Virus record (IMG/VR): IMGVR_UViG_3300037237_000386
Coordinates: 1 to 64,000 of that record
Length of the DNA stretch: 64,000 nucleotides
Origin: a virus
Reading direction: 5' to 3' (one strand)
Each line of letters opens with the position of its first letter. The first letter of the stretch is position 1. Both the position numbers and the translations under genes were made by a program. Shown piece by piece: positions 1,695 through 36,218 of this stretch. The notes beneath the pieces are model-generated. The model did no database searches. It was not told the DNA's origin and saw only the letters and a program-made list of their open reading frames with translations.

Positions 1695-1914
1695 GGGTCG
1701 CGCGCGGGAGAGCTGCTCGCGAACGCGCCGTAGGCGCGTGAGGGAGCGGGGTGTGGGTCCAGGGACCTCTGCTCTGCCAGGAGCACACAAGGGATCAAGG
1801 ACTCGCTTCGCTCGCCCTCGTCCCCCTTCCTCGTTTCTAACGAACCAAGGAAAGCTCTGGTTATGCAGCGCTTCTTAGAGAGTCGCGCACGTGCACGCGC
1901 GAGGAGCAGTCGGA

Positions 1915-1930
1915 GGAAACCCGGGTTTCC
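1915..1930. repeat. 16-bp palindrome GGAAACCCGGGTTTCC, copy 1
   Basis: Exact match; intergenic; 11 nt before CATGAC-N7-GTG. Confidence 0.95.
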
Positions 1931-1954
1931 CTCGCAGGCGGCATGACCGGTGGT

Positions 1955-2071
1955 GTGAAGTTCCAAGAGACGCACGGGGGCAGCTACACGCCTGAGTACC
2001 GAGCTTGGATTGGGATGCGCGGGTGCCGTTTGCGGAGAGGGTGGCCTGTTGACCGGGCTCTTGGTGCATGA
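1955..2071 (+). pseudogene. Internally deleted phage HNH-type endonuclease relic
   Basis: THGGSYTPEYRAWIGMR (typical N-terminus) joined directly to RLRRGWPVDRAL (typical C-terminus); TGA overlaps the helicase ATG. Confidence 0.55.
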
Positions 2072-3540
2072 CGACCGTCCGTGTGGTGGTCGATTCGAGG
2101 GTGTGCGTGGAGGCGCGTGCGTTGACGGCGGAGGCGACCGAGGCGCTGAAGGCGACTGCGGAGCACCACAACGCGAAGCACGCGATGATGCGGAAGATGC
2201 GGCTGCCCACGAAGGGCGAGCCGGCCATCATCAAGACGTGGACGTTGGAGGACCACGGTGAGTGGCTGACGTTCCCGCGGGGTGCCAGGGTGCGCGTCGA
2301 GAAGGTGCTCCGGGACAAGGGCGTCGACTTCGAGTTGGAGGACCGGAGGACGCAGGGCGACGACGCGGCGGAGGGTCGCATCCCGGACCACGGCGTCGAG
2401 CTTTGGGCACATCAACGCGAGGCGCTGGAGGCGGCGTACGCGGCGGAGACGTGCGTTGTGCGCGCCCCCACGGGCTCGGGCAAGACGACGCTGGGCATGG
2501 CGCTGGCGAGCCGCGTGAACCTGCCGACGATGGTCATCGTCCCCACCCGGGGGATCTTCGACCAGTGGGTGGAGCGCGCCGGCAAGGAGCTCGGGCTCGA
2601 GGGCGCGGACCTCGGCATCGTGCATCAGGGGACGAGGCGACTGCGGCCGCTCACCGTCGCGATGCAGGGGACGCTCGCGGCGCACGGCGTGGACGAGGAG
2701 ATGGCGGACTACTTCGGGTTCGTGCTCTGCGACGAGGCGCAGCTGTTCGCGGCCAAGACGTTCTTCGCGGCGGTCGACCCGTTCCACGCGAAGTATCGAA
2801 TTGCCGTCTCGGCTGACGAGCGGCGCAAAGACAAGAAGGAGTTCCTGACTCACGACTTGTTCGGGCCGTGCGCGGCGGACATCAAACTAGCGGACGTCGA
2901 GAAGGCCGGGCACGTGATGGACGTCGAGATAGCCGTCGTGCCGACGCGCTTCGAGGCGGACTGGTACGGGGTGCCCGAGGCCGGGAAGGAGCTCGACTTC
3001 GACCGGCTGCTGAAGGAGATGGCGGCCGACGAGGACAGGAACGCGCTCGTGCTCCGGCACGTGAAGGTGGAGATCGCGTTCGGGCATCAGGTGCTCGTCA
3101 TGGCTCACCAGCGCGAGCACTGTCAGACGCTGGCGACGGCGCTGACGGCGGACGGGCTGCGCGCTGGGTTCCTCATCGGGGGACCGGACTACCGAGCGGA
3201 GTTTGTGCAGACGAAGTCGAGGCTCACGAGCGGCGAGGTGCAGGTGGGGGTGGGAACCTTCAAGGCCATCGGCACCGGCATCGACATGCCGGCGGTGGAG
3301 CGCGTGGCAGCGGCGACTCCCGTGGCCGCGAACCGACAGTTTTTCAATCAGGTGCGCGGTCGTGCGTGCCGGAGCTCGAAGGGCAAGAAGCCGCCGCGGA
3401 TGACGTACTTCTGGGACGAGCGGGTGTTCGGGTTGAAGCACCTGCAGAACATCGTGCAGTGGAACCGGACGGTGAGCGTGCGGCACGCGGGTGGATGGGT
3501 GGAGGGGCGCGAATACCTGCGAGCGCGGCGCAAGGGTGAG
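2068..3540 (+). CDS. Superfamily 2 DExx-box helicase (as assembled, the ORF continues in frame to 4647)
   Basis: APTGSGKT Walker A, DEAQ motif II, TGIDMP and QVRGRACR motifs V/VI; end position approximate. Confidence 0.85.
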
Positions 3541-9595: not shown

Positions 9596-9631
9596 TTGAC
9601 AACCTTGCGGGTCGGATTCATACTGCTTCCC
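9596..9631 (+). promoter_or_regulatory. Sigma70-type promoter, probably leaderless
   Basis: TTGACA-17nt-CATACT-7nt-ATG(9632). Confidence 0.8.
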
Positions 9632-9901
9632 ATGGACAGCACGACGAACCCGACGGCAGGCCTGACGGTGACGCGCGAGGACGGTTACTTCTGCGCCCGC
9701 CAGGAGGCCGAGATGAAGACGATCGCGGTGGTTGCAGCACCTACGCCCGCCGGTTATGCGCAGCGGGCCGTTTTTGCCACCACGGAGCTTGGTGCCATCC
9801 GGCGTGCCCGCCAATTGGAGGGTCAGGTCATCGTCGTCGCTTGGCCTGCCGCTGGCTCCAGGGCGCCGTACTGGACCGTGGCCGTTCGGGTGGCGTCGTG
9901 A
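9632..9901 (+). CDS. Hypothetical protein (leaderless)
   Basis: ATG 7 nt after the -10 box. Confidence 0.55.
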   Translation: MDSTTNPTAGLTVTREDGYFCARQEAEMKTIAVVAAPTPAGYAQRAVFATTELGAIRRARQLEGQVIVVAWPAAGSRAPYWTVAVRVAS

Positions 9902-9953
9902 GGCGAATCGAGCAACGGACCGCGTACCCGATGAGCGACGGGGAGACACGACC

Positions 9954-12938
9954 ATGACGATTCCTATCTGGCTGAAGAACATGAACCCGGAGCAGGTGCA
10001 GGCAATCGAGCATCAGGACGGGCCGTGCGCCCTCCTCGCGCAGGCGGGCTGCCATCGCGCGGGAACCGAGATCCTGATGGCGGACGGGAGCATCGAGTCG
10101 GTGGAGGACGTGCAGGTTGGTGACTTCCTCATGGGACCGAACGGGGTGGAGCGGAAGGTGCTCGGTCTCTGTCGTGGTGAAGGGCAGATGTACAGGGTCG
10201 TCCCGGTGAAGGGCGAACCGTTCGTCGTGAACGAGGACCACGTGCTGACGCTCGTCGAGACGAGCACGGACGCGGTGACAGATGTGAAGGTGAGCGACTG
10301 GCTGGAGTGGTCGGAGTACAGCCGGAAGAATCACAAGCTCTTCCGAGTCGGGGTGACGCGGTTCAGCGGCACTTGGGACCGGAGGTGGCCGGTGGACCCG
10401 TACTTACTCGGTGTTCTCCTCGGGGACGGGAGCATCGTGCGTTCGGTGGGAGTGACCACGGTCGACCCGGAGTTGCAGCGGTACGTGCGCCACATAGCGG
10501 AGGTGTACGGGCTCGCCGTGAGGCAGGACGGCGATGGAGGTTCCACGACGACGTGGACGCTGACCGCGCGCAACGGAGAGGGACAGGGACCGGGTCGCAA
10601 CCCCATCGTGAACGGGCTGAAGGAGTTGGGTCTCTACGGGTGCAAGAGTGGGACGAAGTTCGTTCCGGATTGCTACCTGAGAGCGCCGGTGGAGACGCGA
10701 CTGGAGGTGCTCGCCGGGCTGATGGACACGGACGGGAGCCTCAGCGGAGGAGGGTTCGACTACATCACGAAGTCACCCAGGCTTGCCGCGGGTGTGTTCT
10801 TCCTCGCGAGGAGTTGCGGGTTTGCTGCGTACGTGACCGAGTGCTGGAAGCAGGACCAGCATGGGACGGGAGGCATGTACCAGCGCATCTCGATCTCGGG
10901 CGACATGTCGACACTGCCGACCATCGTGGCTCGGAAGAAGGCAGCCCCGAGGCAGCAGAAGAAGGACGTGCTTCGGACAGGCGTAACGCTGGAGCGGCTC
11001 GGGGTGGAGAAGTTCTACGGCTTCACACTCGACTTCGACGGGCGGTACGTGATGGGTGACTTCACCGTCACACACAACAGCGGCAAGACGCGCGCGCTCG
11101 TGCACCGCATCGCCCGCATGGTGGAGCAGGGCACGCCGGCACGCCGCATCCTCGCCGTGACCTTCAGCAAGAAGGCAGCCGACGAGATGAACGAGCGCCT
11201 GGACAAGCTCGGCATCGACGACGCGCGCGTGGGCACGTGGCACTCGCTCTGCCTGCAGATCCTGCGCGAGGACGAGACGGCGTGGGCGGAGTGGGACCGG
11301 AGCGACGAGGCCCAGGCGAAGGTGGGCGGGCTCCTGAAGGAGGCTCTCGGCTTCAAGCACCTGAACTGGCGCGAGGCGGACGCGGGAGCCGTGGAGCGGT
11401 ACATCGGCTGGTGCAAGGCGCACCTGGCGGACCCCATGAGCGAGGTGGCACAGGAGCTGGCGGAGGAGAAGTTCGAGACGGCGCGGGAGGCGGAGCTGGC
11501 GATGCGCGCCTACGACGTCTACCAGCGGCTCGTGGAGGAGAAGAACATCCTCACCTACGACGACTTCCTCGTGTTCGCGCACCGGCACCTCGTGAAGGAC
11601 GAGGAGGCCCGGCTGAAGTGGGCGAGCAGATGGACGCAGATGCTGGTCGACGAGGCCCAGGACAACAATCCGGCGCAGAAGGCGATGCAGCACCTGCTCG
11701 CGAAGGAGCACCGGAACCTGATGCTGGTGGGCGACGTGGCGCAGTCGATCTACGGCTTCCGCGGCAGCAACCCGGCGTTCCTCGCGGGCTTCGCGGCGGA
11801 GTGGGGCGGGACGACGGTCATCATGAACCGGAACTACCGGAGCGGCCGGGCCATCGTGAACGTGGCGAACAAGATCATCGCCTCGGCGGCGGTGCGCCTG
11901 CCCACGGACATGCTCGCGGAGCGGGACCACGAGGGCACGGCGCGCGCGCTCGGGCACACGGACCAAGACGCGGAGGGGGAAGCCTTCGCGCAGTGGGTGC
12001 TGGAGATGAGCACGGACCATCAGCCGCTGAGCAGCATGTGCGCCCTCTTCCGCACGAACGCGCAGAGCCGGGCGCTGGAGGAGGCGTGCCTGAAGCACCG
12101 CATCCCGTACGTGGTGGTCGGCGGGACGAGCTTCTACGAGCGGCGCGAGGTGAAGAACCTGCTCGCGTACCTGCGGGTCGCCACGGGCCGGGACAAGGAT
12201 GGGGACGCGGTGAAGCGGTGCATCAACACGCCGTTCCGCTTCCTCGGCACGGCCTTCGTCGAGCGGATGATGGACGCGGCGGCGGGCAAGAAGGTCAGCA
12301 ACTGGCCGGCGCTCGCGCGCAAGGTGGCGGAGCAGGCGGGCATCCAGACGCGGCAGCGCGCGAGCGTGCAGGAGTGGGCGAACCTCCTCGAGCGCGTGGG
12401 CGCGAACATCGCGGCGGGGGAGGCAGCGTTCCAGGCGGAGACGGCGCCCGTGCCCGAGGCCCGCCCCGCGGCAATCCTGAACGAGTTGGTGGAGCGCACG
12501 GGCTACCTGAAGTACTTGGAGCGCGAGCAGGGCGTGGAGAGCGTCGAGAACAGCCACGCGGCGAACGTGCGCGAGATGGTGCGCATCGCGGAGCGGTTCG
12601 ACACCGTGAAGGATCTGCTCGACTACATCGAGGCGATGGCGAAGGCGGCGAAGAAGCAGCGCGCGGACGGGCAGGCGGGCGGCGAGCGCGTCCTTCTGAT
12701 GAGCGTGCACCGGAGCAAGGGCCTGGAGTGGGCGAACGTGTGGGTCAACGGCTGCAACGAGATGGTGCTGCCGCACGTGCGCGGCGACATCGAGGAGGAG
12801 CGCCGGCTGATGTACGTGGCCGCCACACGAGCCCGGGACAACCTGGTGCTCAGCTACGTGCGGCAGTTCGCGCGCCCCGAAGGGATCAAGGAAGCGCAGC
12901 CGAGCAGGTTCCTCCGCGACGCCGGGCTGGTGGCGTGA
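9954..12938 (+). CDS. uvrD: UvrD/PcrA SF1 helicase containing an intein
   Basis: AQAG|SGKT, VDEAQD, VGDVAQSIYGFRG, NYRS, HRSKGLEW, EERRLMYVAATRA. Confidence 0.93.
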   Translation: MTIPIWLKNMNPEQVQAIEHQDGPCALLAQAGCHRAGTEILMADGSIESVEDVQVGDFLMGPNGVERKVLGLCRGEGQMYRVVPVKGEPFVVNEDHVLTLVETSTDAVTDVKVSDWLEWSEYSRKNHKLFRVGVTRFSGTWDRRWPVDPYLLGVLLGDGSIVRSVGVTTVDPELQRYVRHIAEVYGLAVRQDGDGGSTTTWTLTARNGEGQGPGRNPIVNGLKELGLYGCKSGTKFVPDCYLRAPVETRLEVLAGLMDTDGSLSGGGFDYITKSPRLAAGVFFLARSCGFAAYVTECWKQDQHGTGGMYQRISISGDMSTLPTIVARKKAAPRQQKKDVLRTGVTLERLGVEKFYGFTLDFDGRYVMGDFTVTHNSGKTRALVHRIARMVEQGTPARRILAVTFSKKAADEMNERLDKLGIDDARVGTWHSLCLQILREDETAWAEWDRSDEAQAKVGGLLKEALGFKHLNWREADAGAVERYIGWCKAHLADPMSEVAQELAEEKFETAREAELAMRAYDVYQRLVEEKNILTYDDFLVFAHRHLVKDEEARLKWASRWTQMLVDEAQDNNPAQKAMQHLLAKEHRNLMLVGDVAQSIYGFRGSNPAFLAGFAAEWGGTTVIMNRNYRSGRAIVNVANKIIASAAVRLPTDMLAERDHEGTARALGHTDQDAEGEAFAQWVLEMSTDHQPLSSMCALFRTNAQSRALEEACLKHRIPYVVVGGTSFYERREVKNLLAYLRVATGRDKDGDAVKRCINTPFRFLGTAFVERMMDAAAGKKVSNWPALARKVAEQAGIQTRQRASVQEWANLLERVGANIAAGEAAFQAETAPVPEARPAAILNELVERTGYLKYLEREQGVESVENSHAANVREMVRIAERFDTVKDLLDYIEAMAKAAKKQRADGQAGGERVLLMSVHRSKGLEWANVWVNGCNEMVLPHVRGDIEEERRLMYVAATRARDNLVLSYVRQFARPEGIKEAQPSRFLRDAGLVA
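10050..11078 (+). mobile_element. Intein (343 aa) with LAGLIDADG endonuclease, inserted in the UvrD Walker A
   Basis: Starts CHRAGTEILMADG, ends VTHN before Ser; LLGVLLGDGS and LAGLMDTDGS. Confidence 0.93.
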
Positions 12939-13595: not shown

Positions 13596-13616
13596 CCCGG
13601 GGCGAGTAGAAAGCGG

Positions 13617-13645
13617 TTTACAAGTATCGCGGTAGGGAGCAGATT
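13617..13645 (+). promoter_or_regulatory. Putative promoter of the sigma-like gene
   Basis: TTTACA-17nt-CAGATT; spacer AGTATCGCGGT is shared with the promoter at 35958. Confidence 0.55.
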
Positions 13646-13686
13646 GCAGGACCCGGGCGCAACCGGGATCACGGAGGCCGAAGGCC

Positions 13687-15585: not shown

Positions 15586-15759
15586 GTGGGAGCGAGGCTC
15601 AAGGTCGTCAAGGGGAGGGAGACGAAGCAAGAGCGCGAGGACAGGGAGGCAGACGAAGCGGTGGAGGAGGTTGTTCGCGTCTGCCTCCGGATGAGTGGGC
15701 GAGGACGGCTGGAGTACCTCGCGTCGCTCATTGATTCCGTCGCAAGGCGGGCGCGATGA
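15586..15759 (+). CDS. Small hypothetical protein
   Basis: Fills the gap; coupled to the next gene. Confidence 0.4.
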   Translation: MGARLKVVKGRETKQEREDREADEAVEEVVRVCLRMSGRGRLEYLASLIDSVARRAR

Positions 15760-16040
15760 GCGACGACATGCCGTGCACGGCGTGCGACGGACACGGGCGC
15801 GTGCCCCTGAGCCAGGAGTTGCAGGACAGCCTCGACAAGGTGCGCGAGGGCGGTGTGGAGACGGCGGAGGACCTCTGGAAGACGATGGCGAAGGGGTTGT
15901 GGAAGACGGCGGCCGTCAATCGTCTGGAGAGGCTCCGCACGCTCGGGTACTTGGAGCGGACGAAGCGAGGCCGCACGTGGCATTACTCCGCGAGGACCGC
16001 GGCGCAGGTGGTCGAGGTGAAGAAGCGACAGCGGCGCTGA
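15756..16040 (+). CDS. Small winged-HTH-like protein with CxxC
   Basis: CTACDGHG; AVNRLERLRTLGYLERTKRGR. Confidence 0.55.
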   Translation: MSDDMPCTACDGHGRVPLSQELQDSLDKVREGGVETAEDLWKTMAKGLWKTAAVNRLERLRTLGYLERTKRGRTWHYSARTAAQVVEVKKRQRR

Positions 16041-16063
16041 CGCGCGCCAAGACGGGCGTCATC

Positions 16064-19000
16064 ATGGGAGACGTGTACGGCGCCGGGTACGTGAACGGGT
16101 ACGTGGATGGGAGCAGGGTGACCCTGCTCTCGCGCGGGGCAGGCGGCAGGCTGCAGCGCAGCCAGGTGCCCGCGGAGCACGTCGCCTACTTCCGCAAGGA
16201 CGAGCTGCCGCCGGAGCTGGAGAAGCTCCTCCTGCGGAACTGCGCCGGCGCGAAGCTCGAGGACGGCGGGTGGATGCGGTTCGCGCTGCCCGAGCACGTG
16301 CGCCGCAACGTGTGCATCGAGGACGTGTGGAAGAACGCCAGCGGCGAGAAGCGGGACAACCCGTTCGCGGCGGTGCCTAGCTACGAGGGAGACGTCGACC
16401 CGGTGCGGCGGTTCCTGACGGACAGCAAGGCGACCGTCGCTCGGCCGAGGCGCGCGTACACGGACATCGAGACCGACTCCAGGGTCCCCTTCAACCGGAA
16501 GCACGAGATGCGCGTGCTCAGTTGGGGGCTGCAGGCGCACGACACGGGCGAGATGCGCGTGGGCGTCCTCCAAGCCGACACGGACGGTGCGGAGGCGGAG
16601 CTGCTCGGGCAGTGGTGGGAGGCGATGGAGGAGTTCGACCAGGTGGCCGCCTGGAACGGGGGCGAGGCGGACCCCGACGGCGACGGGTTCGACTTCCCGG
16701 TCATCATGGCCCGCTCGGAGCACGTGAAGCTCCGTGGCGTGGACCCGAGGAGGTTCCTCTACGTCGACCAGCTGGAGGCGTTCCGGCGGATGAATCAGCA
16801 CGCGTCGGAGAGCGGCGAGGAGAAGCAGAGCATGAAGCTCGACTCCATCGCGCACATCCTCCTCGGCGCGGGCAAGGACGACTTCGACGCGAGCCACACG
16901 TGGGAGGCTTGGGCGGCGGGAGGACCCGAGCGCAGGCGCCTCGTGAAGTACATGATGCGGGACGTCGACTTGCTGCGGCAGATCGAGCTGAAGACGCAGT
17001 TCCTCGATCTCTTCTCGACGCTCTGCGGCGTCTTCCACATGTTCGCGGACACGCGAGGGCTGAACCCGACGCAGCAGGTGGACGCGTACATGCTCGGGTT
17101 CCTCCGCGAGCGCGGACTGCACCGCCCGACGAAGAAGCGCATCGAGAAGGGCGAGAAGTTCAAGGGCGGGTACGTGATGAACCCGCCGCGCTTCGTCGGC
17201 GTGGAGAAGGACATTCACGTGGCGGACTTCGCGGGGATGTACCCGAGCATCATCCGCTCGTGGAACATGAGCCACGAGACGAAGGCGGCGAACGCACCGG
17301 TGAACGGGCCCGTGCCTGAGGGGTTCTGCCGGTGCCCCAAGACGGGCACGAGCTTCACGACGGCGGAGGAGGGGCTGCTCAGCATCGCGGTCGGCAACCT
17401 CATCGAGAACCGGAAGAAGTACCGGAAGCTGAAGGCGAGCCTGGCGCCGGGGTCGCCGGAGTTCGCGGACGCGGACCGCCTGAGCGACTCGTACAAGGTG
17501 GCCACGAACATCTTCTTCGGGGTCGTGGGCAGCCCGTTCAGTCCCTACTTCGACAAGCAGATTGCGGAAGGCATCACGCAGAACGGCGTGTGGCTCATCG
17601 AGCACACCATCGCCGCGGCGGAGAAGCGCGGGTGGTTCGTCGGCTACGGCGACAGCGTCACGGGGGATCGAACTGTCGTCTTACGCTCGCCTGCAGGAAG
17701 GACCGTCATCAAGCCGGTGGAGGAGGTGTTCGAGGACGGGTGTGACGTGGTGCGCGCACGCGACAAGGAGTTCGTCTTCATGCAGGGGTGGGAGGCACTC
17801 GCCCGAGACGCGAAGGGTCGCGAGGGCTGGTATCCGCTGACGCAGGTTGTCCGTCATCGCACGTGCAAGGAGCTCGTGCGCATCTCGACGAAGCGCGGCG
17901 AAACGGAGGTGACGAGTGACCATTCGATCATGTCCGGCGGACGCGAGGTGAAGCCCGACGAGTTCCTGGCGGCAGGAGCGCGGTTCGAGAAGGTCGACGC
18001 CCAGGAAGGCAGGAAGCTAGAGCGTGTTGACCTGTTCGAGTACCTGACTGACTTCAAGGTTTCGTACGCGTCCCGAGGACGTGTGAGGGTGAAGGAGTTC
18101 TTCGTTACGGCGGACGGCGAGTGGGTCGGGTTGAGAATGCGAGGTTCGACGAAGCAGTACATCCGGCGGTTTTATGACGCGGGATCGGAGCGGTTCAGGG
18201 CGCTGCTGCGCGTGATGGGGGCGTATCTGGCCGAGGGGAGCGCGAGTATCCGCAAGCTGACGGCGACTCGTGACATGTTCTCTATCGGGCAGTCCGACCC
18301 GGACTGGCTCGCCCCGTTGCAGAAGGACTTGGCTTCGTTCACGCAGGGGGTTGAGACGGACCTGATGCCGACTGGGGGAGGGATGTGGGCAATTCGTTCG
18401 GGAGCCGCGCTGCTGCCGTACGCGTTCGCTGCACTCTGCGGATTCAGGTCGAGTGGCAAGCGGTTTCCGGACTTCGTGTACGACCTGGCGGATGACGACT
18501 TTGCGGAGATGAAACGTCCCATGGTGGAGGGGGATGGACACGTCGTGGAGCCGGACGTGTGGAGGAGCAGGGCGCTGCGGCGAAGCCCCGGGCACGAGTT
18601 CTCGTACACAACGAAGTCGCAGGTGCTGATGGCGGGGTTCTCGTATGCGCTGGACCAGCGTGGGTTCGAGCACGCGATCCACTACAGACCGGAGAAGCGG
18701 TGTTGGACGTTGAGGACAAGGCCGACGGGGACAGAGCGACCGAACAGGCAGCGGGTGCTCGTCTCGCGGCGGAAGGCTGAGGACGAGTGGGTGTACGACT
18801 TGACGGTGGAGGGGGCACACACGTTTGTCGATGGCATCGGTAGGGTGCTTCTGCACAACACCGACAGCATCTACGTGAAGGGACCGACGAAGGCGGAGTT
18901 CGAGGCGTTCACGAAGTGGTGCAACGAGGAGCTCTACCCGCCGCTGATGAAGCAGGTGGGGTGTCCGCGCAACGTCGTGAACTTGGAGTACGAGAAGGAG

Positions 19001-19945
19001 TTCGAGCGCATCGTCTTCGTCACGGCGAAGCGCTATGCCGGCTGGTACAAGCACTTCAAGGGCAACGCGCCGAAGGCGGACGCGAAGCCCGAGGTGAAGG
19101 GCCTGGAGTACAAGCGGGGCGACAGCACGAAGCTCGCGCGCGACCTGCAGGTGCGCGTCGTGGAGATGCTGATGAAGGGCGAGGAGGGGATGGAGGCGTT
19201 CCATGAGCTGCTCTCGCACGCGCGACAGCACGTGCTCGAGGACGCGCTGCCCCTGGCCGAGGTGGTGATGCGCAAGGAGCTCAGCAAGGCGCTGCGCGAG
19301 TACGCGGTGAAGAAGAAGAAGGACGGCGAGGACGCGGCGCAGTCGCCGCACGTGGTCGTGGCCAAGATGCTGAAGGCCCGCGGCCAGGACGTCAGTGCCG
19401 GCACACGCGTCGGCTACGTGGTGCTCGACGACGAGGCGGAGGACCCGGCGAAGCGGTTCATGCCGGAGGAGGACTACAAGGGCGAGTGCGACCGGCACTA
19501 CGTGTGGCAGTCGCTCGTCTACCCGCCGACGATGCGCCTCCTCGAAGCAGCGTTCCCCGATGCGGACGCGGTGAAGCATTGGGAGGCTTGGGCCAAGAGC
19601 CGCCCGAGCAAGAAGGCCCTGAAGGCGCTGGAGCAGGGGCAGGGAGCTCTCTTCAAGTCGGAGGAAACCCGGGTTTCCCCCACGGGTCTGCGGACGACAG
19701 CGCCTCCCACGCTGGCGAGCACTCAGCCTTACGAGGCGGTCGTCGACCAGGACAAGTTGGAGGCGGCCGGGGGCCTGGAGGTGCTGCTCGCGGTCGCGCA
19801 GCGGCATCCGGGCAAGCGGATGCTCAAGCTGCGGCTGCGTCTCGACACGGGGGCGGAGGCGGCGATGGACACGGCGGTGCGCGTGGATGGTGGCGGGGCG
19901 CTGGCGCGGAAGCTCGCCCTCTTCCGGCACGTTGCTGCGTCGTGA
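16064..19945 (+). CDS. polB: Family B DNA polymerase containing an intein
   Basis: Exonuclease DIETD and FDFP; DFAGMYPSII; KVATNIFFG; YGD|TDS; KRYAG; KGLE. Confidence 0.93.
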   Translation: MGDVYGAGYVNGYVDGSRVTLLSRGAGGRLQRSQVPAEHVAYFRKDELPPELEKLLLRNCAGAKLEDGGWMRFALPEHVRRNVCIEDVWKNASGEKRDNPFAAVPSYEGDVDPVRRFLTDSKATVARPRRAYTDIETDSRVPFNRKHEMRVLSWGLQAHDTGEMRVGVLQADTDGAEAELLGQWWEAMEEFDQVAAWNGGEADPDGDGFDFPVIMARSEHVKLRGVDPRRFLYVDQLEAFRRMNQHASESGEEKQSMKLDSIAHILLGAGKDDFDASHTWEAWAAGGPERRRLVKYMMRDVDLLRQIELKTQFLDLFSTLCGVFHMFADTRGLNPTQQVDAYMLGFLRERGLHRPTKKRIEKGEKFKGGYVMNPPRFVGVEKDIHVADFAGMYPSIIRSWNMSHETKAANAPVNGPVPEGFCRCPKTGTSFTTAEEGLLSIAVGNLIENRKKYRKLKASLAPGSPEFADADRLSDSYKVATNIFFGVVGSPFSPYFDKQIAEGITQNGVWLIEHTIAAAEKRGWFVGYGDSVTGDRTVVLRSPAGRTVIKPVEEVFEDGCDVVRARDKEFVFMQGWEALARDAKGREGWYPLTQVVRHRTCKELVRISTKRGETEVTSDHSIMSGGREVKPDEFLAAGARFEKVDAQEGRKLERVDLFEYLTDFKVSYASRGRVRVKEFFVTADGEWVGLRMRGSTKQYIRRFYDAGSERFRALLRVMGAYLAEGSASIRKLTATRDMFSIGQSDPDWLAPLQKDLASFTQGVETDLMPTGGGMWAIRSGAALLPYAFAALCGFRSSGKRFPDFVYDLADDDFAEMKRPMVEGDGHVVEPDVWRSRALRRSPGHEFSYTTKSQVLMAGFSYALDQRGFEHAIHYRPEKRCWTLRTRPTGTERPNRQRVLVSRRKAEDEWVYDLTVEGAHTFVDGIGRVLLHNTDSIYVKGPTKAEFEAFTKWCNEELYPPLMKQVGCPRNVVNLEYEKEFERIVFVTAKRYAGWYKHFKGNAPKADAKPEVKGLEYKRGDSTKLARDLQVRVVEMLMKGEEGMEAFHELLSHARQHVLEDALPLAEVVMRKELSKALREYAVKKKKDGEDAAQSPHVVVAKMLKARGQDVSAGTRVGYVVLDDEAEDPAKRFMPEEDYKGECDRHYVWQSLVYPPTMRLLEAAFPDADAVKHWEAWAKSRPSKKALKALEQGQGALFKSEETRVSPTGLRTTAPPTLASTQPYEAVVDQDKLEAAGGLEVLLAVAQRHPGKRMLKLRLRLDTGAEAAMDTAVRVDGGGALARKLALFRHVAAS
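17654..18859 (+). mobile_element. Intein (402 aa) in the PolB YGDTDS motif
   Basis: Starts SVTGD, ends LLHN before Thr; WVYDLTV block F; MGAYLAEGS endonuclease motif. Confidence 0.92.
19663..19678. repeat. 16-bp palindrome, copy 4 (in the PolB linker, read as ETRVS)
   Basis: Exact. Confidence 0.95.
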
Positions 19946-27705: not shown

Positions 27706-28055
27706 TGGGGACCATGAGCGGCAAGACGAACGGCACGACGGGACCGGCGACTCACAAGCCCGTGGAGGAAACCCGGGTTTCCCTCAAGACGGTGCGCTAC
27801 CGGGTGGAGGGCAAGCGTGTCTTCGTCATCTACGCGGCGGACGCGAGCGAGGCCCTCGACAAGATCAACGAGGCCTGCGCCTCGGGGACGAAGGTCGTGC
27901 ATGGGTTCGACGAGGTGGCCCTGGCGACGTTCGCGCCGTTCCACGTCCTCGGGTCGGAGGGAGGGATCACGGACGAGGGTGAGCTCAGCTTCGGGCTCGG
28001 GGGCGAGGCGATGCTCTGCGCGGACAATGCGCCCGCGCGCGAGACGCGAAAGTGA
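27702..28055 (+). CDS. Hypothetical protein
   Basis: Coupled ORF containing a palindrome. Confidence 0.55.
   Translation: MMGTMSGKTNGTTGPATHKPVEETRVSLKTVRYRVEGKRVFVIYAADASEALDKINEACASGTKVVHGFDEVALATFAPFHVLGSEGGITDEGELSFGLGGEAMLCADNAPARETRK
27767..27782. repeat. 16-bp palindrome, copy 5 (ETRVS)
   Basis: Exact. Confidence 0.95.
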
Positions 28056-28591: not shown

Positions 28592-29287
28592 GTGAGGAAG
28601 AAGGCGAAGAGGGCCCCGGCGCAGAAGCCGGCGGGCAAGGCGGCGCCGAGTGTTGTCGGCAAGGTGGAGATGGCGGCGCTCGACCTCGTGCGCCCGAACA
28701 CCTGGAACCCGAACCGGCTGACGCCCTTCGAGAAGCGAGCGCTCAAGCACGGGCTCGAGCACGACACGTGGCTGCCGAGCCACGCGCTCACGATCTGGAG
28801 GACCGACGAGAAGGGCAAGAAGAAGATGCTCGTCATCGACGGCGAGCACCGCTGGACCGCCGCCCGGGAGCTCGGCCTGAAGGAGGGACCGATGGTGTTC
28901 CTCGACGGGCTGACCGAGGCCGAGGCGAAGGCCTGGACCGTGAAGCTCGACGCGAAGCGGGGCAAGTTCGACGAGGACAAGATGGGCCCCCTCCTCCGGA
29001 GCCTGGAGCCGACGATGGACGTGGAGACGCGAGCGCTCGACCTCGGCATCGACGAGGACCGCCTCGTGCGGTACCTCGACGACGAGCCGGACAAGGCCGT
29101 GGTCGGCGAGCTGCCGAGCGGGCAGCGGGCGAGCGTGCGGCAGGTGCAGCTCTTCTTCCCGCAGGCGCGCTACGACGAGTTCCAGAAGATGGTGCGGGAG
29201 ATGGCGGGGAGCCTGAAGACGAAGAACGTGACCGACACGGTGCTGGAGGTGGTCCGCCGTGCGGGCGCAGCTGCAGCTCCGAAGTAG
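28592..29287 (+). CDS. ParB/Srx-domain protein, paralogue 1
   Basis: PNTWNPN, VIDGEHR; HTH-like RALDLGIDEDRL; RHH-like C-terminus. Confidence 0.85.
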   Translation: MRKKAKRAPAQKPAGKAAPSVVGKVEMAALDLVRPNTWNPNRLTPFEKRALKHGLEHDTWLPSHALTIWRTDEKGKKKMLVIDGEHRWTAARELGLKEGPMVFLDGLTEAEAKAWTVKLDAKRGKFDEDKMGPLLRSLEPTMDVETRALDLGIDEDRLVRYLDDEPDKAVVGELPSGQRASVRQVQLFFPQARYDEFQKMVREMAGSLKTKNVTDTVLEVVRRAGAAAAPK

Positions 29288-30178
29288 CCACCCGGACGCC
29301 CACGTGAGGATGCTCGTGGGCAAGAGGGGTGTGGCCGAGGACGCGCCGGTGCTGCTTGCGGGCGACGCCAGCGCGTTCAAGCCGAACGGCGAGCGCCTCC
29401 TGACGCTCGTGCGCGGGGCCATCGATCGGAGGGTGATCGACGCGGCGTGGCCCTTCATGTGGGGGCTGCGAAAGCACGTCAGCACGAACCGGGGAGCCTA
29501 CGGCGGGGACGACGCGCTCGACGACGGGCGCGCGAAGGTGAAGTCGGGCGGGGTGCGGTACAGGGCCGTCAAGCAGGATGGGACCGTGAGCAAGACGAAC
29601 CACGCGAACCCGGTGCGGAGCGTGGTCGCGGGGGCGTTCGACCGCAGCCCGCGCATCCCCTTTTGCCGGCAGACGGCGTACAGCACGGACGAGCCGGAGA
29701 AGTGGGGCGCGGCGCTGCCCTTCGTGCAGGCGGTGGGGGAGCTGTTCCGCGACGTCGTACCGGACCGGGCTGCGGCGCAGCGCGAGCAGGCGGAGAAGAC
29801 GCACCCGGCGTACGTGATCCCGGGCACACCCTTCACGACCATCACCGTGAACAACACGGTCGCCGGCACGTACACACGGACAAGGGGGACTTTCACCAGG
29901 GGTTCGGTGTGATGGCGGTCATGCGCCGGGGTCACTACCGCGGGGCAGAGCTCGTGTTCCCGAAGTACGGCGTGGGTGCGGACCTGCAGCACGGCGACGT
30001 CATCTTCTTCGATCCGCACGAGGTGCACGGCAACCTGGCGTTCCGTGAGGGCATCGGCGTGGAGGCGGAAGATTGGGCTCGGATCTCGATGGTCATGTAC
30101 TTCAGGACGCGCATGGTCGATTGCCTGGAGCCGAGGGCGGAGTTGGAGCGCGCCAAGGGCGTGCGAGGAGAGGTGTGA
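29259..30178 (+). CDS. TET/JBP-family 2OG-Fe(II) dioxygenase, with a -1 frameshift at about 29873
   Basis: PFCRQTAY, GTPFTTITVN, HTDKGD (HxD), DPHEVHGN, RISMVMY. Confidence 0.85.
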
Positions 30179-30825
30179 TGGGCAAGCGGAAGAAGCCGAC
30201 GGTGAGTGCGGTGGTCAACTCGCCGCTGACGGGCGTGAAGCCGAATCCGTGGAATCCGAACCGACTGACGGCGTTCGAGAAGGAGAGCCTGAAGTTCGGC
30301 ATCCGTGAGGACGGGTGGCTCGCCAGCCACGCGCTCACCATCTGGCGCACGGACGAGAAGGGCAGAGAGAGGAACCTGGTCATCGACGGCGAGCACCGGC
30401 TGGTGGCGGCGCTGGAGCTCGGGATGACGGTCGGCCCGATGTGCTTCATCGACGGGATGAAGGAGAGCGACGCGAAGAAGCTCACCATCAAGCTCGACGC
30501 GAAGCGCGGCAAGTTCGACCAGGAGCTCCTGCAGACGCTCGTCAGGAGCATCGCGGATGGCCTCGACCTGGAGACGAGGAGCCTGGCCCTCGGCATCGGT
30601 GAGGACGTGCTCGGGGAGATGCTCGACACGACGCCGGATACACCCGTCGTCGGGGAGCTCGGCAGTGGCAGGACGAGCGACACGAAGGTGGTCACGTTGT
30701 TCTTCACGCCCGAGGGACATGACGAGTTCCTGAAGGTGGCCAAGGAGCTGGCGGTGCGCTTCAAGCAGCAGACGACGAGCGACACGGTGTTCGAGGCGGT
30801 GCGAAGGGCGAACGCCGCAAGATAG
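30178..30825 (+). CDS. ParB/Srx-domain protein, paralogue 2
   Basis: PNPWNPN, VIDGEHR; shares HALTIWRTDEKG and KLDAKRGKFD with paralogue 1. Confidence 0.85.
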   Translation: MGKRKKPTVSAVVNSPLTGVKPNPWNPNRLTAFEKESLKFGIREDGWLASHALTIWRTDEKGRERNLVIDGEHRLVAALELGMTVGPMCFIDGMKESDAKKLTIKLDAKRGKFDQELLQTLVRSIADGLDLETRSLALGIGEDVLGEMLDTTPDTPVVGELGSGRTSDTKVVTLFFTPEGHDEFLKVAKELAVRFKQQTTSDTVFEAVRRANAAR

Positions 30826-30830
30826 TCGCC

Positions 30831-31781
30831 ATGCGCGTGACGTACCGGAGGATGAGCGGGGCCGTCGGGCTGACGGACATGGAGCGCGGCAGCCGCGGGA
30901 TGTGGCTGGAGAAGAGGCGCGCGCTCCTCGCCGAGCTCGCGCGCCGGGGGCACGGGGTGAGCATCGTCAACCGGATGACGAAGTTCAGCATGCCCCCCGA
31001 GATCCCGCCGTGGGACCCGAAGCGGTGCGACCTCTTGATGATCGAGTTCGGCAGCTCGAACGCGAAGTTCTATGGCGAGGATCTCGACGGCACGAGCAGG
31101 ATGATCGACTCGCACGAGGGGAACATCGTGTTCCTCTGCGACGACCCGGACCTCCCCTACACGTGGAAGACGGTGACGAAGAAGATCGGGCGCTGGGTCG
31201 TGTGGATGAACGCGACGCGGGGCGAGGCGTTCGGCGGGCAGCCGGCGGGGATGGTCGTCCGGGATGCGCCGTTCGCGGCGCTGCTGCCCAAGCCGCTGAC
31301 GCCCATCCCGCTCGACCGCATGGAGCCTGCCGTCTACATCGGCAGGCCCAAGGGGCGCGAGAAGGCGCTGCGGGGCATCTTCGAGGCGGGTGTGGAGCTC
31401 GAGGTGTGCGGGCGCGCGAAGGAGTGGGAGGGGTTCGACGTGCGGGTCATCGACGCGCCGGACCAGGGCGCGCGCGGGGCCTTCTATCGGAGGCGGCTGG
31501 CGAGCGTCGTCGTCGCGGACCGGAAGCACAAGCGCATGGGCTGGAGGACGGGGCGCGCGTACCACGCGCTTTACGCGGGGACGCCGGCCGTCGTCGAGGC
31601 GGACCACGAGGCGCTGGCGGAGACGTTCACTGTGTTCCACGAGCCGGGGGATCTGCGAGACACGCTCACCGCGTGGAAGACGGACCCGCGGTTGCGCGCG
31701 AAGGCGTGGGACGCGCAGATGAATGCCCAGGTGCGGGACAGAGTGACCATGGACGAGACGCTGCGGGCGTCGGGCTTGTGA
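30831..31781 (+). CDS. GT-B glycosyltransferase, DNA beta-glucosyltransferase-like
   Basis: LARRGHGV, LCDDPD, YIGRPKGR, TGRAYHALYAG; lies next to TET. Confidence 0.65.
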   Translation: MRVTYRRMSGAVGLTDMERGSRGMWLEKRRALLAELARRGHGVSIVNRMTKFSMPPEIPPWDPKRCDLLMIEFGSSNAKFYGEDLDGTSRMIDSHEGNIVFLCDDPDLPYTWKTVTKKIGRWVVWMNATRGEAFGGQPAGMVVRDAPFAALLPKPLTPIPLDRMEPAVYIGRPKGREKALRGIFEAGVELEVCGRAKEWEGFDVRVIDAPDQGARGAFYRRRLASVVVADRKHKRMGWRTGRAYHALYAGTPAVVEADHEALAETFTVFHEPGDLRDTLTAWKTDPRLRAKAWDAQMNAQVRDRVTMDETLRASGL

Positions 31782-32227
31782 CGGTCGCGTACGACCTCGA
31801 CGGCGTGCTGGCGGAAGCGCCGCCCGAGGGCAGCAAGGCGTGGCGCAGGATGAAGGGACCGGAGCGCGCGGAGAGGCGCGCCTTCCTCGGGCGCTGGTAC
31901 CTGACGGCGAAGGGCCTCCACAAGCCGACGGAGCACGGGTTCCACGTCGTCACGGCGCGCTCGACGTGGGCCAGGGAGACGACGCTCGACTGGCTGGCGG
32001 CGCGCTACGGCGACCGGATGCTGGGCCTGCACATGCTCAAGGGAGGCAGGACCATCGAGCGCGTCGTCGCGTTCAAGGCGGGCGTGCTGCGGGAGCTCGG
32101 GGCGACGGACTACTCGGAGGACAACAGGACCGTCGTCGTGGCGCTGCGTAAGGCGGTACCCGAGTGCCGCATCTGGCACTACAAGGGCGGTCGCATGAAC
32201 CTCGACTACCCGGAGGCACCGCTTTGA
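31778..32227 (+). CDS. HAD-superfamily phosphatase/nucleotidase
   Basis: YDLDGVLA, VVTAR, K, YSEDN. Confidence 0.8.
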   Translation: MTVAYDLDGVLAEAPPEGSKAWRRMKGPERAERRAFLGRWYLTAKGLHKPTEHGFHVVTARSTWARETTLDWLAARYGDRMLGLHMLKGGRTIERVVAFKAGVLRELGATDYSEDNRTVVVALRKAVPECRIWHYKGGRMNLDYPEAPL

Positions 32228-32583
32228 CGCCGGTGCTGCGGTTCCTCAAGCGTCAGGTGGAGCACTACTTGGGATCGTTCTACGAGGGCCCGGAGCCTCC
32301 GCGCCGGTTGCGGAGGATGGTGCTCCTCTTCGCGAACGCGCATCCCAAGGCGACGCGGAGGGAGTGGGCAGAGTTCGCCGCGGCGCACGCTGCCGAGGCG
32401 TACCAGAGCGGGTACACGCGGGGGTGGGAGCGGAGCGAGCGAGACGCGGACGCGATGCCGTGGCTCGTGCAGGAGCCGGAGATCGTCGCGGACGCGCTTG
32501 ACCCTGGGTGGAGGGACGGGCCGAACGCGCTGCTGGTGAACGCGGAGGACGTGGTGGTGAGCGCTGCATCACGGGAGGCATGA
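32224..32583 (+). CDS. Hypothetical protein
   Basis: TTGA coupling; RBS GGAGG. Confidence 0.5.
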   Translation: MTPVLRFLKRQVEHYLGSFYEGPEPPRRLRRMVLLFANAHPKATRREWAEFAAAHAAEAYQSGYTRGWERSERDADAMPWLVQEPEIVADALDPGWRDGPNALLVNAEDVVVSAASREA

Positions 32584-33398
32584 GCGACCAGACGGCAGGA
32601 GCAACGGACGCGCCCATCTATCTCCTCGACCACGGCTACCTGCGGCTCGTGGAAACTTGGGGCAACGACGAGCGCATCGTCGAGGCGGCGCGCATGAGCA
32701 CGGGCAAGGGCTTCCTCGGGTGGGGCGTCGAGGAGACGTGCGACAAGTGCCGGGGGAGCGGTACGAATGAGCCGGAGAACGGACCGGGCTCGCTCTGCAA
32801 GCAGTGCTCGGGGAGGACGCGCTGGGTGAACAAGCCCGGCGACGAGAAGCTGCTGAAGTACCTCTACGACAACCGGCACATGACGCCGTTCGAGATGGCG
32901 GGTGCGACCTTCGAGGTGCAGGCGCCGATCTTCGTGTTCCGCGAGTGGCACCGGCATCGGACGCAGAGCTACAACGAGGCGAGCGCGCGCTACATGCCGC
33001 TGCCGGACGTGAACTACGTGCCGACGGTGGAGCGGTTGATGATCGGGGGCGGGCACCTGACGGCGCAGGCGGGCGCGGTGAAGGGAGCGGCCGAGTTCAC
33101 GAGGGAGAGCGCGGAGACGTTCCAAACGCTCCTTCGCACGCAGTACAACGAGGCGCAGGGGCTCTATCAACTGGCGCTCGACAACGGTGTACCCAAGGAG
33201 CTCGCGCGGCTCTGCCTGCCGGTGGGGCGGTACAGCCGGATGCGCGCGAGCGCGAACCTGCGCAACTGGATGCAGTTCCTGACGCTGCGGGACGACCCGC
33301 ACGCACAGTACGAGATCCGGGTGTACGCCGCGGCGGTGCGCGACGTGTTGGCGACGAGCTTCCCGAGGACGATGCGCATCTTCAAGGGAGGCACGTGA
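32580..33398 (+). CDS. thyX: Flavin-dependent thymidylate synthase with a Zn-finger insertion
   Basis: HMTPFEM, REWHRHRTQSYNEASARY, ELARLCLP, NLRNW, HAQYEIR. Confidence 0.93.
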   Translation: MSDQTAGATDAPIYLLDHGYLRLVETWGNDERIVEAARMSTGKGFLGWGVEETCDKCRGSGTNEPENGPGSLCKQCSGRTRWVNKPGDEKLLKYLYDNRHMTPFEMAGATFEVQAPIFVFREWHRHRTQSYNEASARYMPLPDVNYVPTVERLMIGGGHLTAQAGAVKGAAEFTRESAETFQTLLRTQYNEAQGLYQLALDNGVPKELARLCLPVGRYSRMRASANLRNWMQFLTLRDDPHAQYEIRVYAAAVRDVLATSFPRTMRIFKGGT

Positions 33399-34140: not shown

Positions 34141-34553
34141 GCCAGGACCAGGGACCGAGCCTCACGCGTAGCGCGGCGCACAACGCGGCGGCTGCGCTGG
34201 TGACGATGTACGCGGGAGCAATCGCGGACGCGGAGCGGGAGATCGCGCAACTGCGGGCGATGGTGGAGCGGACCTCGACGCTGCTCGGGCAGACGGTGAA
34301 GCAGCGGGACGAGGCGCAGGAACGGGCCTCCGACGCAGCCGCGACGACGCAGCGTTGGAAGGACGACTACGCACGCGAGGCGCAGGCGTACGCCGCCGTC
34401 TACTCGGTCGTCGAGGAGGTGAGGGAGGCGATGCCGCGGCTGCGTGAAGCGGGGTTCACGAGGCTCGTCGAGATGTGGGACGCGGCGAGCAAGCCGTATC
34501 CGAAGCCTGGGGAAACCCGGGTTTCCCCCGAACCCGAGCACGTGGCAGGCTGA
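34137..34553 (+). CDS. Hypothetical coiled-coil protein
   Basis: Coupled ORF. Confidence 0.55.
   Translation: MSQDQGPSLTRSAAHNAAAALVTMYAGAIADAEREIAQLRAMVERTSTLLGQTVKQRDEAQERASDAAATTQRWKDDYAREAQAYAAVYSVVEEVREAMPRLREAGFTRLVEMWDAASKPYPKPGETRVSPEPEHVAG
34511..34526. repeat. 16-bp palindrome, copy 6 (ETRVS)
   Basis: Exact; 19 nt before CAGGCT-N7-ATG(34559). Confidence 0.95.
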
Positions 34554-35581: not shown

Positions 35582-35961
35582 AGACGAAGCGCACGACGGA
35601 GCACGCGACGGGCGACGCGGTGAATCACCCGGACCACTACAACGCGCACCCGAGTGGGGTGGAGTGCATCCGGGTCGTCGAACATATGAGCTTCAACGTC
35701 GGCAACGCGGTGAAGTACGCGTGGCGCGCGGACCACAAGGGCACGAGCCCGGTGGAGGACCTGAAGAAGGCGGCTTGGTACATCGCGCGCGAGATCGAGC
35801 GGCTGACGAGTCCGAGCACGATCCCGGGAGGACCGCACGCACTGGCGACGCAGGTGGTGGAGTCGTTCGTGCGGCGCTACGGGAGGCTCCCGCCGCAGGT
35901 TCGCGTGGGGGAAACCCGGGTTTCCCCCGTCCGCCGGCGGAAGGCCAAGAAACATAGTTGA
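35578..35961 (+). CDS. DUF3310-family phage protein
   Basis: VNHPDHY, ECI, GNAVKYAWRA, EDLKKAAWY. Confidence 0.85.
   Translation: MKTKRTTEHATGDAVNHPDHYNAHPSGVECIRVVEHMSFNVGNAVKYAWRADHKGTSPVEDLKKAAWYIAREIERLTSPSTIPGGPHALATQVVESFVRRYGRLPPQVRVGETRVSPVRRRKAKKHS
35910..35925. repeat. 16-bp palindrome, copy 7 (extends to 22 bp, 35907-35928; ETRVS)
   Basis: Exact; 32 nt before TTGACA. Confidence 0.95.
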
Positions 35962-35993
35962 CAAGTATCGCGGTTGGATTCATACTGCTCGGT
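35958..35993 (+). promoter_or_regulatory. Sigma70-type promoter, probably leaderless
   Basis: TTGACA-17nt-CATACT-7nt-ATG(35994). Confidence 0.82.
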
Positions 35994-36218
35994 ATGGACG
36001 AGACGACGCGCAAGGCTCGGGCGAAGGCGGCGGGGTACAAGTTCTGGCTCGCGTTCACCCGGGAGTTCCTCTTCGGGCAGACGCTCGCGGGCACGCGGCA
36101 CGAGGACGGGCTGCCGTTCTGCCGCCTGGGCGACGGCAAGGCCTGGGTCAACGCGATCAACGCGCGCCCCGCCCGCGTCGGGTACAAGGTCATCAGCTAC
36201 CGCGTGGTGGCGCTTTGA
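35994..36218 (+). CDS. Hypothetical protein (leaderless)
   Basis: ATG 7 nt after the -10 box. Confidence 0.55.
   Translation: MDETTRKARAKAAGYKFWLAFTREFLFGQTLAGTRHEDGLPFCRLGDGKAWVNAINARPARVGYKVISYRVVAL

Follow-up and report, generated by a model that had tools for sequence, protein, structure and literature searches.

The closest described counterparts of the locus considered here are the 'ParB-dependent' phage thymine dioxygenases, a subclass defined by O'Toole et al. (PNAS 2026; PMC13229309; preprint 10.1101/2025.08.14.668559). In these systems, ParB-like proteins without a DNA-binding domain activate the dioxygenase on double-stranded DNA (dsDNA). The pair ParB176/5mYOX176 was reported to modify E. 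coli, lambda and phiX174 DNA; furthermore, 5-hydroxymethyluracil (5hmU) in E. coli DNA accounts for 25-35% of T when ParB is present, compared with <1% otherwise, and in vitro ParB is required on dsDNA only (PMC13229309). Activation survived the mutation of predicted NTP-binding residues, and a stable complex could not be trapped (PMC13229309). Here we describe a related locus, in which two ParB-like genes, ParB1 and ParB2, flank a TET/JBP-type dioxygenase gene that a single-nucleotide deletion has put out of frame. It belongs to the viral record IMGVR_UViG_3300037237_000386 (76,918 bp, CheckV completeness 83%), the first 64 kb of which (64,000 nucleotides) constitute the window.

We give a probability of about 0.72 to the following reading as a whole: ParB1 and ParB2 are dioxygenase activators in a thymidine-hypermodification cassette and have no part in partition, a 16-bp palindrome dispersed over the genome is a separate matter, and the cassette is broken. 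Under this reading, both would be ParB-fold proteins that lost the helix-turn-helix (HTH) domain that reads parS and that let their partner thymine dioxygenase work on dsDNA; they would neither form a partition system nor load at the dispersed palindrome. The cassette would carry out a post-replicative hypermodification of thymidine, the intended chemistry being T -> 5-hmU -> glycosyl-hmU, similar to base J. The 1-nt deletion, which hits the codon for the first iron ligand, would leave the cassette inactive with its ParBs and glycosyltransferase intact. In turn, the palindrome would be a gene-boundary hairpin or operator of this phage group, placed after stop codons and sometimes before promoters. 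The partnership between ParB and dioxygenase is already known (PMC13229309); what is new is the frameshift and the recurrence of twin ParBs.

The core of the module comprises the following features, all on the + strand:

28592..29287, +, ParB1, 231 aa (PHROG 2159, E 3.1e-15), with a GGAGG 8 nt 5' of its GTG start
29310..29912, +, N-terminal part of the dioxygenase (TET/JBP, 5mYOX), read across the frameshift until a premature TGA (29910-29912)
29873..29874, +, 1-nt deletion, where TAC-CAC (the Tyr and His codons before HxD) has lost one C
29873..30178, +, C-terminal dioxygenase part, read in the -1 frame, with HTD, the distal His, the 2-oxoglutarate (2OG) Arg, a conserved Cys and the C-terminal extension
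30178..30825, +, ParB2, the 215-aa paralogue of ParB1 (PHROG 2159, E 6.9e-14), whose start overlaps the dioxygenase stop (ATGA)

The series then continues with a glycosyltransferase that resembles the T4 beta-glucosyltransferase (BGT), a small gene with a DLDGV motif, an uncharacterised gene and ThyX.

The two ParB-like proteins

A first-pass annotation, made from the sequence alone, had described two close paralogues sandwiching the dioxygenase, and this holds: ParB1 and ParB2 align by BLASTP without gaps at 116/213 identical positions (54%, E 1e-80), with a Tet_JBP gene in between, and the four motifs it had listed (NPNRLT, HALTIWRTDEKG, VIDGEHR and KLDAKRGKFD) are all present in both proteins. 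No further ParB copies exist in the record. The N-terminal ends of both, as read from the alignment, are Lys/Arg-rich tails.

The Pfam model ParB_N gives E 0.003 with ParB1, below the cut-off, and no match with ParB2. In PHROG, both proteins match ParB-like families, and also a phage methyltransferase family through its ParB-like head, with E values between 1e-14 and 1e-15, and a profile of the family compared with the PDB retrieved Noc and ParB chains (Noc, 7nfu, E 5.2e-5). An AlphaFold2 (AF2) model of ParB1 with a mean predicted local distance difference test score (pLDDT) of 89.8 consists of a ParB/Srx N-domain (residues 25-141), two short helices (147-151 and 155-162) and C-terminal helices (191-228), joined by a linker in which the 10-residue blocks over 161-180 drop to pLDDT 51-70. 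The best Foldseek matches of this model, at about 1e-6, are ParB-CDP (6sdk, E 1.4e-6), KorB (8qa9) and Noc (7nfu); 7bm8 and 7bnr were also retrieved, and M. xanthus ParB is among the best matches. The three approaches (Foldseek, profile against PDB and PHROG) thus agree on the presence of the ParB/Srx nucleotide-binding N-domain in ParB1.

The same annotation had ascribed to each protein an HTH-like and a ribbon-helix-helix (RHH)-like segment. The former did not survive modelling, since the AF2 model of ParB1 contains no parS-reading HTH domain, only a two-helix remnant. The latter stands, weakly. Folded alone, the C-terminal domain gives a strand-helix-helix with pLDDT 86.9, and in an exhaustive VIA-align comparison the top rows are nearly all ribbon-helix-helix proteins, every one with Z <5 (NikR 4.9, MazE9 4.6, ArtA and AmrZ 4.2, Arc 3.8, pCXC100 ParB 3.7). 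Other comparisons of this domain are non-significant (Foldseek E >=1; profile against PDB, ParG E 0.25 and HP0222 E 0.43), so that the modelled fold is weakly indicative of an RHH-like domain.

As regards the nucleotide pocket, the alignment with Noc 7nfu shows that box I, QPR, is replaced by NPN, invariant across the family; that box II, GERR, is GEHR, with the Glu and the second Arg kept; and that box III, ENLQR, is KLDAKR in the window pair (Asn to Asp, Arg kept), many relatives having N..R. The canonical set of CTP-pocket signatures (QPR, GERR, ENLQR) is therefore incomplete in ParB1 and ParB2. The first-pass remark that GEHR departs from the canonical GERR was correct, and its caution about CTP use was justified, boxes I and III being altered as well.

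The absence of ParA, which had been noted for the window, extends further: Pfam scans of 67 open reading frames (ORFs) gave no ParA-type match, and PF13614 does not occur in the 76,918-bp record (83% complete). Thus, ParB1 and ParB2 share with the ParB of partition systems (ParABS) the fold of the N-domain, a GE.R box II and a C-terminal domain, dimerising in ParABS ParB. Unlike it, they have no HTH parS-binding domain, no ParA and no LG(R/K)GL peptide for contact with ParA; the box-I Arg and the box-III Asn are replaced, and the candidate 'parS' is scattered genome-wide at gene ends.

A further comparison concerns KorB of plasmid RK2, the second-best structural match to ParB1 (8qa9). KorB-KorA, described reportedly by McLean et al. 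in 2025, is said to be a CTP clamp that holds its partner on DNA. KorB differs from ParB1 and ParB2 in having a domain that binds its operator and in its role in transcription. The analogy is offered in PMC13229309 for the holding of the dioxygenase on DNA.

Comparison with the ParB-dependent thymine dioxygenases

ParB176 is described as a nucleotide-binding domain (NBD), a helix-helix of about 20 aa, a linker of about 50 aa and a C-terminal domain (CTD), with NPR in box I (PMC13229309). ParB1 follows this plan, with an NBD, a short helix pair, a linker and a CTD, and without a DNA-binding domain. Likewise, the adjoining Tet_JBP enzyme has the C-terminal extension that is reported for ParB-dependent enzymes only (PMC13229309), and no C5-cytosine methyltransferase gene is in the neighbourhood; indeed, PF00145 is found nowhere in the record. 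Genes for glycosyltransferases or amino-acid transferases follow downstream in the published systems as well, and there too M. xanthus and Caulobacter ParB are the closest structures. Unlike 5mYOX176/ParB176, this locus has two flanking ParBs, box I is NPN and not NPR, and the gene of the enzyme is frameshifted.

Because of the same layout, the extension-bearing dioxygenase and the gene neighbourhood, ParB1 and ParB2 can be filed in the published class as '5mYOX-associated ParB' members, an assignment by architecture and context. By analogy, their role is very probably in support of the dioxygenase and not in partition. This part of the first-pass proposal had been anticipated, since a pair of this kind was shown experimentally in PMC13229309. 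The contig numbers of six of the relatives discussed below are absent from the construct table of that paper.

The kinetoplastid base J pathway (JBP1/2 plus a glucosyltransferase) offers a parallel for the chemistry, with hydroxylation of thymine in DNA followed by glycosylation. Unlike this locus, the JBP of that pathway needs no ParB partner, and the phage enzymes were found to form separate clusters (PMC13229309).

The frameshifted dioxygenase

The split of the dioxygenase gene between two frames was overlooked in the first-pass annotation. Its C half (29870-30175) matches PF12851 (Tet_JBP) at E 2.9e-11 over profile positions 89-163; the N half (29310-29909), in the other frame, matches positions 10-86 of the same profile at E 2.1e-4, below the Pfam cut-off. 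Compared with the DNA of L094, the closest relative, which holds an intact orthologue, there is a single gap, the C lost from TAC-CAC at 29873/29874, just before the His of HxD, and the two halves are 84-86% identical to that orthologue at the protein level (84% for the N part). After the deletion the frame comes to its stop at TGA 29910-29912. All of the relatives that have both halves (20/20) carry them in a single intact frame without stops.

Residues H187, D189, H238, R256 and C270 are invariant in the dioxygenase alignment A3, and the C-terminal extension follows the invariant C270. An intact frame carrying the HxD...H ligands and the 2OG Arg is thus not what the window contains: the residues are encoded and the frame is broken one base before the His codon. 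The sequence with the deletion was crossed without gaps by contigs of three further runs (X2, 29072-30224; X3, 29581-30269; X6, 29754-30311), so that an error in a single assembly does not account for the lesion; a fourth run, X4, has no contig across 29873/29874 and carries no weight. As the missing nucleotide affects the first iron-ligand codon, this phage population probably has an inactive cassette. The two ParBs and the glycosyltransferase remain intact, as does the ATGA by which ParB2 is coupled to the dioxygenase stop.

Twin ParBs in related loci

A search with the alignment as query yielded 58 related loci from viral and metagenome contigs, in 31 of which ParB adjoins TET. The genes found 3' of the dioxygenase in relatives code for glycosyltransferases, TET-associated glycosyltransferases (TAGT) and amino acid:DNA transferases, enzymes of the types known from thymidine hypermodification. 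No close relative emerged from the phage collection: a near-identity DNA search gave zero matches, and tblastn with ParB1 found distant ParB-like genes only (identity <=40.7%).

Twin ParBs stand beside TET in seven other contigs (L006/L089, L010, L017, L094, L095, L101 and L111). The ParB-TET-ParB order is common to L094, with 72% identity to ParB1 and 82% to ParB2 and with the ATGA coupling too, and L087 shares it partly, as TET-ParB2-glycosyltransferase; the ParB2 orthologues in these two loci are 77-82% identical. The arrangement is a ParB-ParB-TET tandem in five contigs (L006/L089, L010, L017, L095 and L111), and the second ParB of L101 lies 1.4 kb upstream. Within twin pairs the identity is 41-56%, and no residue that is invariant in the family has been lost from either copy. 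On a ParB tree obtained by a quick maximum-likelihood search, with support from the Shimodaira-Hasegawa-like approximate likelihood ratio test (SH-aLRT) only, the twins of L017, L111 and L026 are sisters (SH-aLRT 96-99), those of L006 and L095 are separate, and the window pair falls in a seven-row clade (SH-aLRT 90) that includes single-ParB loci. Since twins are sisters in some loci and apart in others on this quick tree, several independent duplications of ParB are suggested. The idea of one ParB per enzyme was rejected, because the downstream enzymes do not track the number of ParBs.

The published account touches on this matter at one point. The expressions 'two ParB', 'paralog' and 'heterodimer' do not appear in the main text of PMC13229309; its supplement has ParB166_1 and ParB166_2, which come from the same contig, and reports 0% 5hmU for 5mYOX166 combined with ParB166_2 alone. 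A complex prediction for ParB1, ParB2 and the intact L094 dioxygenase scored 0.08 against a mark of 0.32, which is not evidence either way.

Other arrangements were encountered among the relatives. A single open frame of L027 (9887-10822) comprises the ParB N-domain and the C-terminal half of the dioxygenase, either a natural fusion or a deletion product. In G001, a viral contig devoid of TET, a ParB-like gene with an RHH-like tail directly follows a C5-cytosine methyltransferase gene (PF00145, E 3.4e-14), and in G004 (locus L207) a ParB-like gene (ParB_N, E 4.3e-10) comes after a 285-aa uncharacterised gene and a DUF3050/haem-oxygenase-like gene. From these gene orders, ParB-like partners may serve other DNA-modifying enzymes too. 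The gene of G001 maps as follows:

1408-2435, minus strand of L208 (G001:84319-86753), ParB-like gene

The dispersed palindrome

The 16-bp palindrome GGAAACCCGGGTTTCC, whose dispersal had been pointed out in the first-pass annotation, occurs in 13 exact copies and one copy with a single mismatch in the window, against 0.03 expected, with a spacing of 1.0-8.1 kb, and in 16 exact copies in the record. None lies inside the module. Its positions are:

window copies starting at 1915, 9560, 13580, 19663, 27767, 34511, 35910, 43988, 47614, 53020, 54021, 55372, 58824 and 63242
further copies in the record at 66251, 71222 and 75289
27767..27782, strand not applicable, nearest copy upstream, 810 bp before ParB1
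34511..34526, strand not applicable, nearest copy downstream, 3.7 kb past ParB2

A TGA stop is found 4-5 nt 5' of the palindrome in 7/14 window copies, the extended consensus being ctG(a/g)gGGAAACCCGGGTTTCCCCCG; four more copies fall within the last codons of ORFs, and the rest are mostly intergenic. Predicted hairpins range from -7.8 to -17.0 kcal/mol, and a T run follows in 0/14 copies. After three of the 14 copies, a conserved TTGACA-type promoter motif comes within about 20-35 nt. These promoter-like stretches (9596-9640, 13610-13650 and 35955-35995) show TTGACA/TTTACA, a spacer with agtatcgcggt and a CATACT-like element.

The exact 16-mer was found at 59 places on nine other viral contigs, five of which have at least three copies. 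The core is kept in four palindrome-sharing genomes whose replication proteins are just 28-55% identical, the range into which most window ORFs fall, and identity to the window ORFs reaches at most 76% in these genomes, so no conserved phage binder for the palindrome came to light there. The flanks of the palindrome vary by lineage yet are symmetric (GG..CC, TT..AA, ATT..AAT, AT..AT). All this fits a separate, genome-wide gene-boundary hairpin or operator, possibly for a host factor. A literature search on dispersed phage palindromes gave nothing useful. Among the repeats that are reportedly genome-wide in actinophages, the stoperators of cluster A mycobacteriophages and the conserved inverted repeats of phiC31 are likewise said to comprise at least a dozen short sites of identical sequence at gene boundaries; unlike these, the sites described here are perfect palindromes with flanks covarying by lineage.

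Does the palindrome accompany ParB and TET? The records G006 (59 kb), G007 (50 kb) and G009 (23 kb), which are 27-59% complete, encode ParB and an intact dioxygenase, and in their whole length no 12-nt palindrome occurs more than once; the same holds for several more ParB-TET loci of 9-13 kb, in which a repeated palindrome is likewise missing. Conversely, only one of the five multi-copy contigs, G005 (18 copies), has twin ParBs and TET. A dioxygenase is missing from G001 (18 copies, 93% complete) and from G004 (3 copies), each of which contains a distant ParB-like gene; G002 (89 kb, 83% complete), with nine exact 16-mers and 21 copies of the 12-nt core, has neither a ParB fold nor Tet_JBP, and G003, a 30% fragment, has the palindrome array with neither ParB nor TET. 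Other dispersed palindromes exist in the relatives, among them GTGATCGATCAC (x6), CAAACCGGTTTG (x10 in 12.7 kb) and CAACACGTGTTG (x7). Furthermore, the C-terminal strand VRMVQLFF of the ParBs is common to phages with different palindromes and with none, and phages that share the 16-mer have divergent C-terminal strands.

Alternative readings of the locus

The central proposal of the first-pass annotation was that ParB1 and ParB2 form a heterodimeric CTP clamp that loads at the palindrome, slides along the DNA and licenses the dioxygenase and the glycosyltransferase on self DNA. Several facts speak for it: the palindrome is strongly over-represented, ParB1 folds like the CTP clamps, its C-terminal domain resembles an RHH, the same palindrome goes together with twin ParBs and TET in G005, and in some relatives it lies just 5' of the ParB gene, where it is translated as GETRVSP in the called N-termini. 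Nevertheless, the comparative evidence contradicts a mechanism of loading at palindromes and of a self/non-self licence. There are arrays without TET or any ParB fold and ParB-TET records without palindromes, an outcome that the first-pass annotation had itself named as refuting its proposal; there is no covariation between the C-terminal strand and the palindrome; and the palindromes sit at stop codons genome-wide, unclustered. To this must be added the missing HTH DNA-binding domain of the ParB1 model and the replacements of the box-I Arg of QPR by Asn and of the box-III Asn by Asp. In addition, activation persists in the NTP-pocket mutants of the published system, and the ParB176 pair can do without a phage-specific site, because E. 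coli, lambda and phiX174 DNA are all modified (PMC13229309); these observations also stand against a modification confined to palindrome-bearing DNA; moreover, the dioxygenase of this locus is frameshifted. We regard the clamp model as extremely unlikely. A different objection to our reading is that the frameshifted dioxygenase would still be expressed, by -1 ribosomal slippage or as two fragments, leaving the cassette active. The lesion is indeed its sole defect, the halves keep a high third-position GC together with their 84-86% identity to L094, the overlap of the premature TGA with an in-frame ATG (TGATG, 29910-29914) could couple translation of the C fragment, and the deletion persists across several samples. 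However, no slippery heptamer was seen by eye in the five codons where the shift would be needed, and in a two-fragment product the HxD iron ligands would be missing, since they lie in the part that is translated out of frame. Continued expression of an active enzyme therefore appears very improbable.

The third alternative concerns the pair itself, whose members would not be redundant: they would form an obligate heteromeric activator or divide the work, one acting on the dioxygenase and the other on the next enzyme or on contact with DNA. The recurrence of twins in seven other contigs, apparently by several separate duplications, their age and retention (41-56% identity, with the invariant residues kept in both), the flanking order and ATGA coupling conserved in L094, and the 0% 5hmU obtained when a two-ParB contig was tested with ParB166_2 alone (PMC13229309, supplement) all point in this direction. 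Against it, a single ParB suffices in many relatives, the number of ParBs is uncorrelated with the kind or number of downstream enzymes, and the ParB tree is a quick one without bootstrap. Such a division of labour is conceivable and, on balance, unlikely. Its most specific version, to which we give similarly little credence, is an asymmetric heteromeric activator that evolved independently several times, in which the RHH-like domains and the basic tails would lie on DNA with the dioxygenase held between them. If this were true, certain enzymes among the ParB-dependent thymine dioxygenases would require both paralogues for activity, and the inactive single-ParB reconstitution (5mYOX166 with ParB166_2) would be explained.

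The reading preferred here, of activators in a broken cassette with an unrelated palindrome, also has points that weigh against it. The three ParB-TET records without repeated palindromes are far from complete, and of the five palindrome records that are at least 83% complete, the present one included, four have some ParB-like protein, so there may be a loose link between palindrome and ParB. The RHH-like C-terminal domain of the model could in principle read DNA, and the nucleotide pocket may differ from that of ParB176, with its NPR, since the box-I Arg is Asn. As for the lesion, an intact allele could coexist, because contigs are assemblies and drop rare variants; furthermore, the runs are all peat/permafrost metagenomes and may stem from one campaign.

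Gene neighbourhood

The window has a G+C content of 68%, with nearly every gene on the + strand. The cassette is surrounded by a replication and nucleotide-metabolism block that includes helicases, DnaB, primase, RecA, a dCTP deaminase, Mre11/Rad50 and a PDDEXK resolvase. Intein and homing-endonuclease domains (Hom_end_hint, LAGLIDADG_3 and Intein_splicing) occur in two genes of this block, those of a UvrD-like helicase and of a family-B polymerase (PolB), at window positions 9732-12938 and 15695-19945. Downstream of ParB2 the following genes are found:

30831..31781, +, glycosyltransferase of the GT-B type, resembling T4 beta-glucosyltransferase plus Glyco_trans_1_2
31778..32227, +, 149-aa protein with a DLDGV motif at its start, 62% identical to the gene after ParB in L091
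32164-32583, small uncharacterised protein with a conserved FYEGPEPP-like motif; no match in Pfam
32508..33398, +, ThyX thymidylate synthase (PF02511, E 1.5e-42) with a zinc-ribbon insert

The glycosyltransferase is weakly matched in Pfam (PF13524, E 0.051); in the ESM Atlas it has a feature score of 0.97 and a TM of 0.80 to a cluster that is 100% PF09198, and it is 69% identical to the gene 3' of ParB2 in L087. The 149-aa protein, which gave no match in Pfam and PHROG scans, may be HAD-like to judge from its DLDGV motif. Many relatives, whether they have TET or not, also encode the FYEGPEPP-like small protein, 0-3 kb 3' of their ParB gene (L005, L006, L008, L009, L015, L086, L088, L099, L111, L207 and L208). 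The insert, noted for the ThyX stretch 32580-33395, is a CXXC-type zinc ribbon, with weak matches to Anti-TRAP and DnaJ_CXXCXGXG over residues 50-94.

Concluding remarks

The ParB-dependent thymine dioxygenases are a recent discovery, first described in 2025-26. The apparently repeated duplication of the activator allows a direct comparison between one-ParB and two-ParB systems, and the RHH-like C-terminal domain is a possible module of contact with DNA in a protein that is said to have none. At the same time, the idea of a self/non-self 'parS licence' for hypermodification, attractive and unsupported, can be set aside, and the dispersed palindrome would become a regulatory element in its own right. 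Finally, this locus offers a view of a wild phage population in which the dioxygenase is apparently a fresh pseudogene, its activators and the glycosyltransferase being kept.

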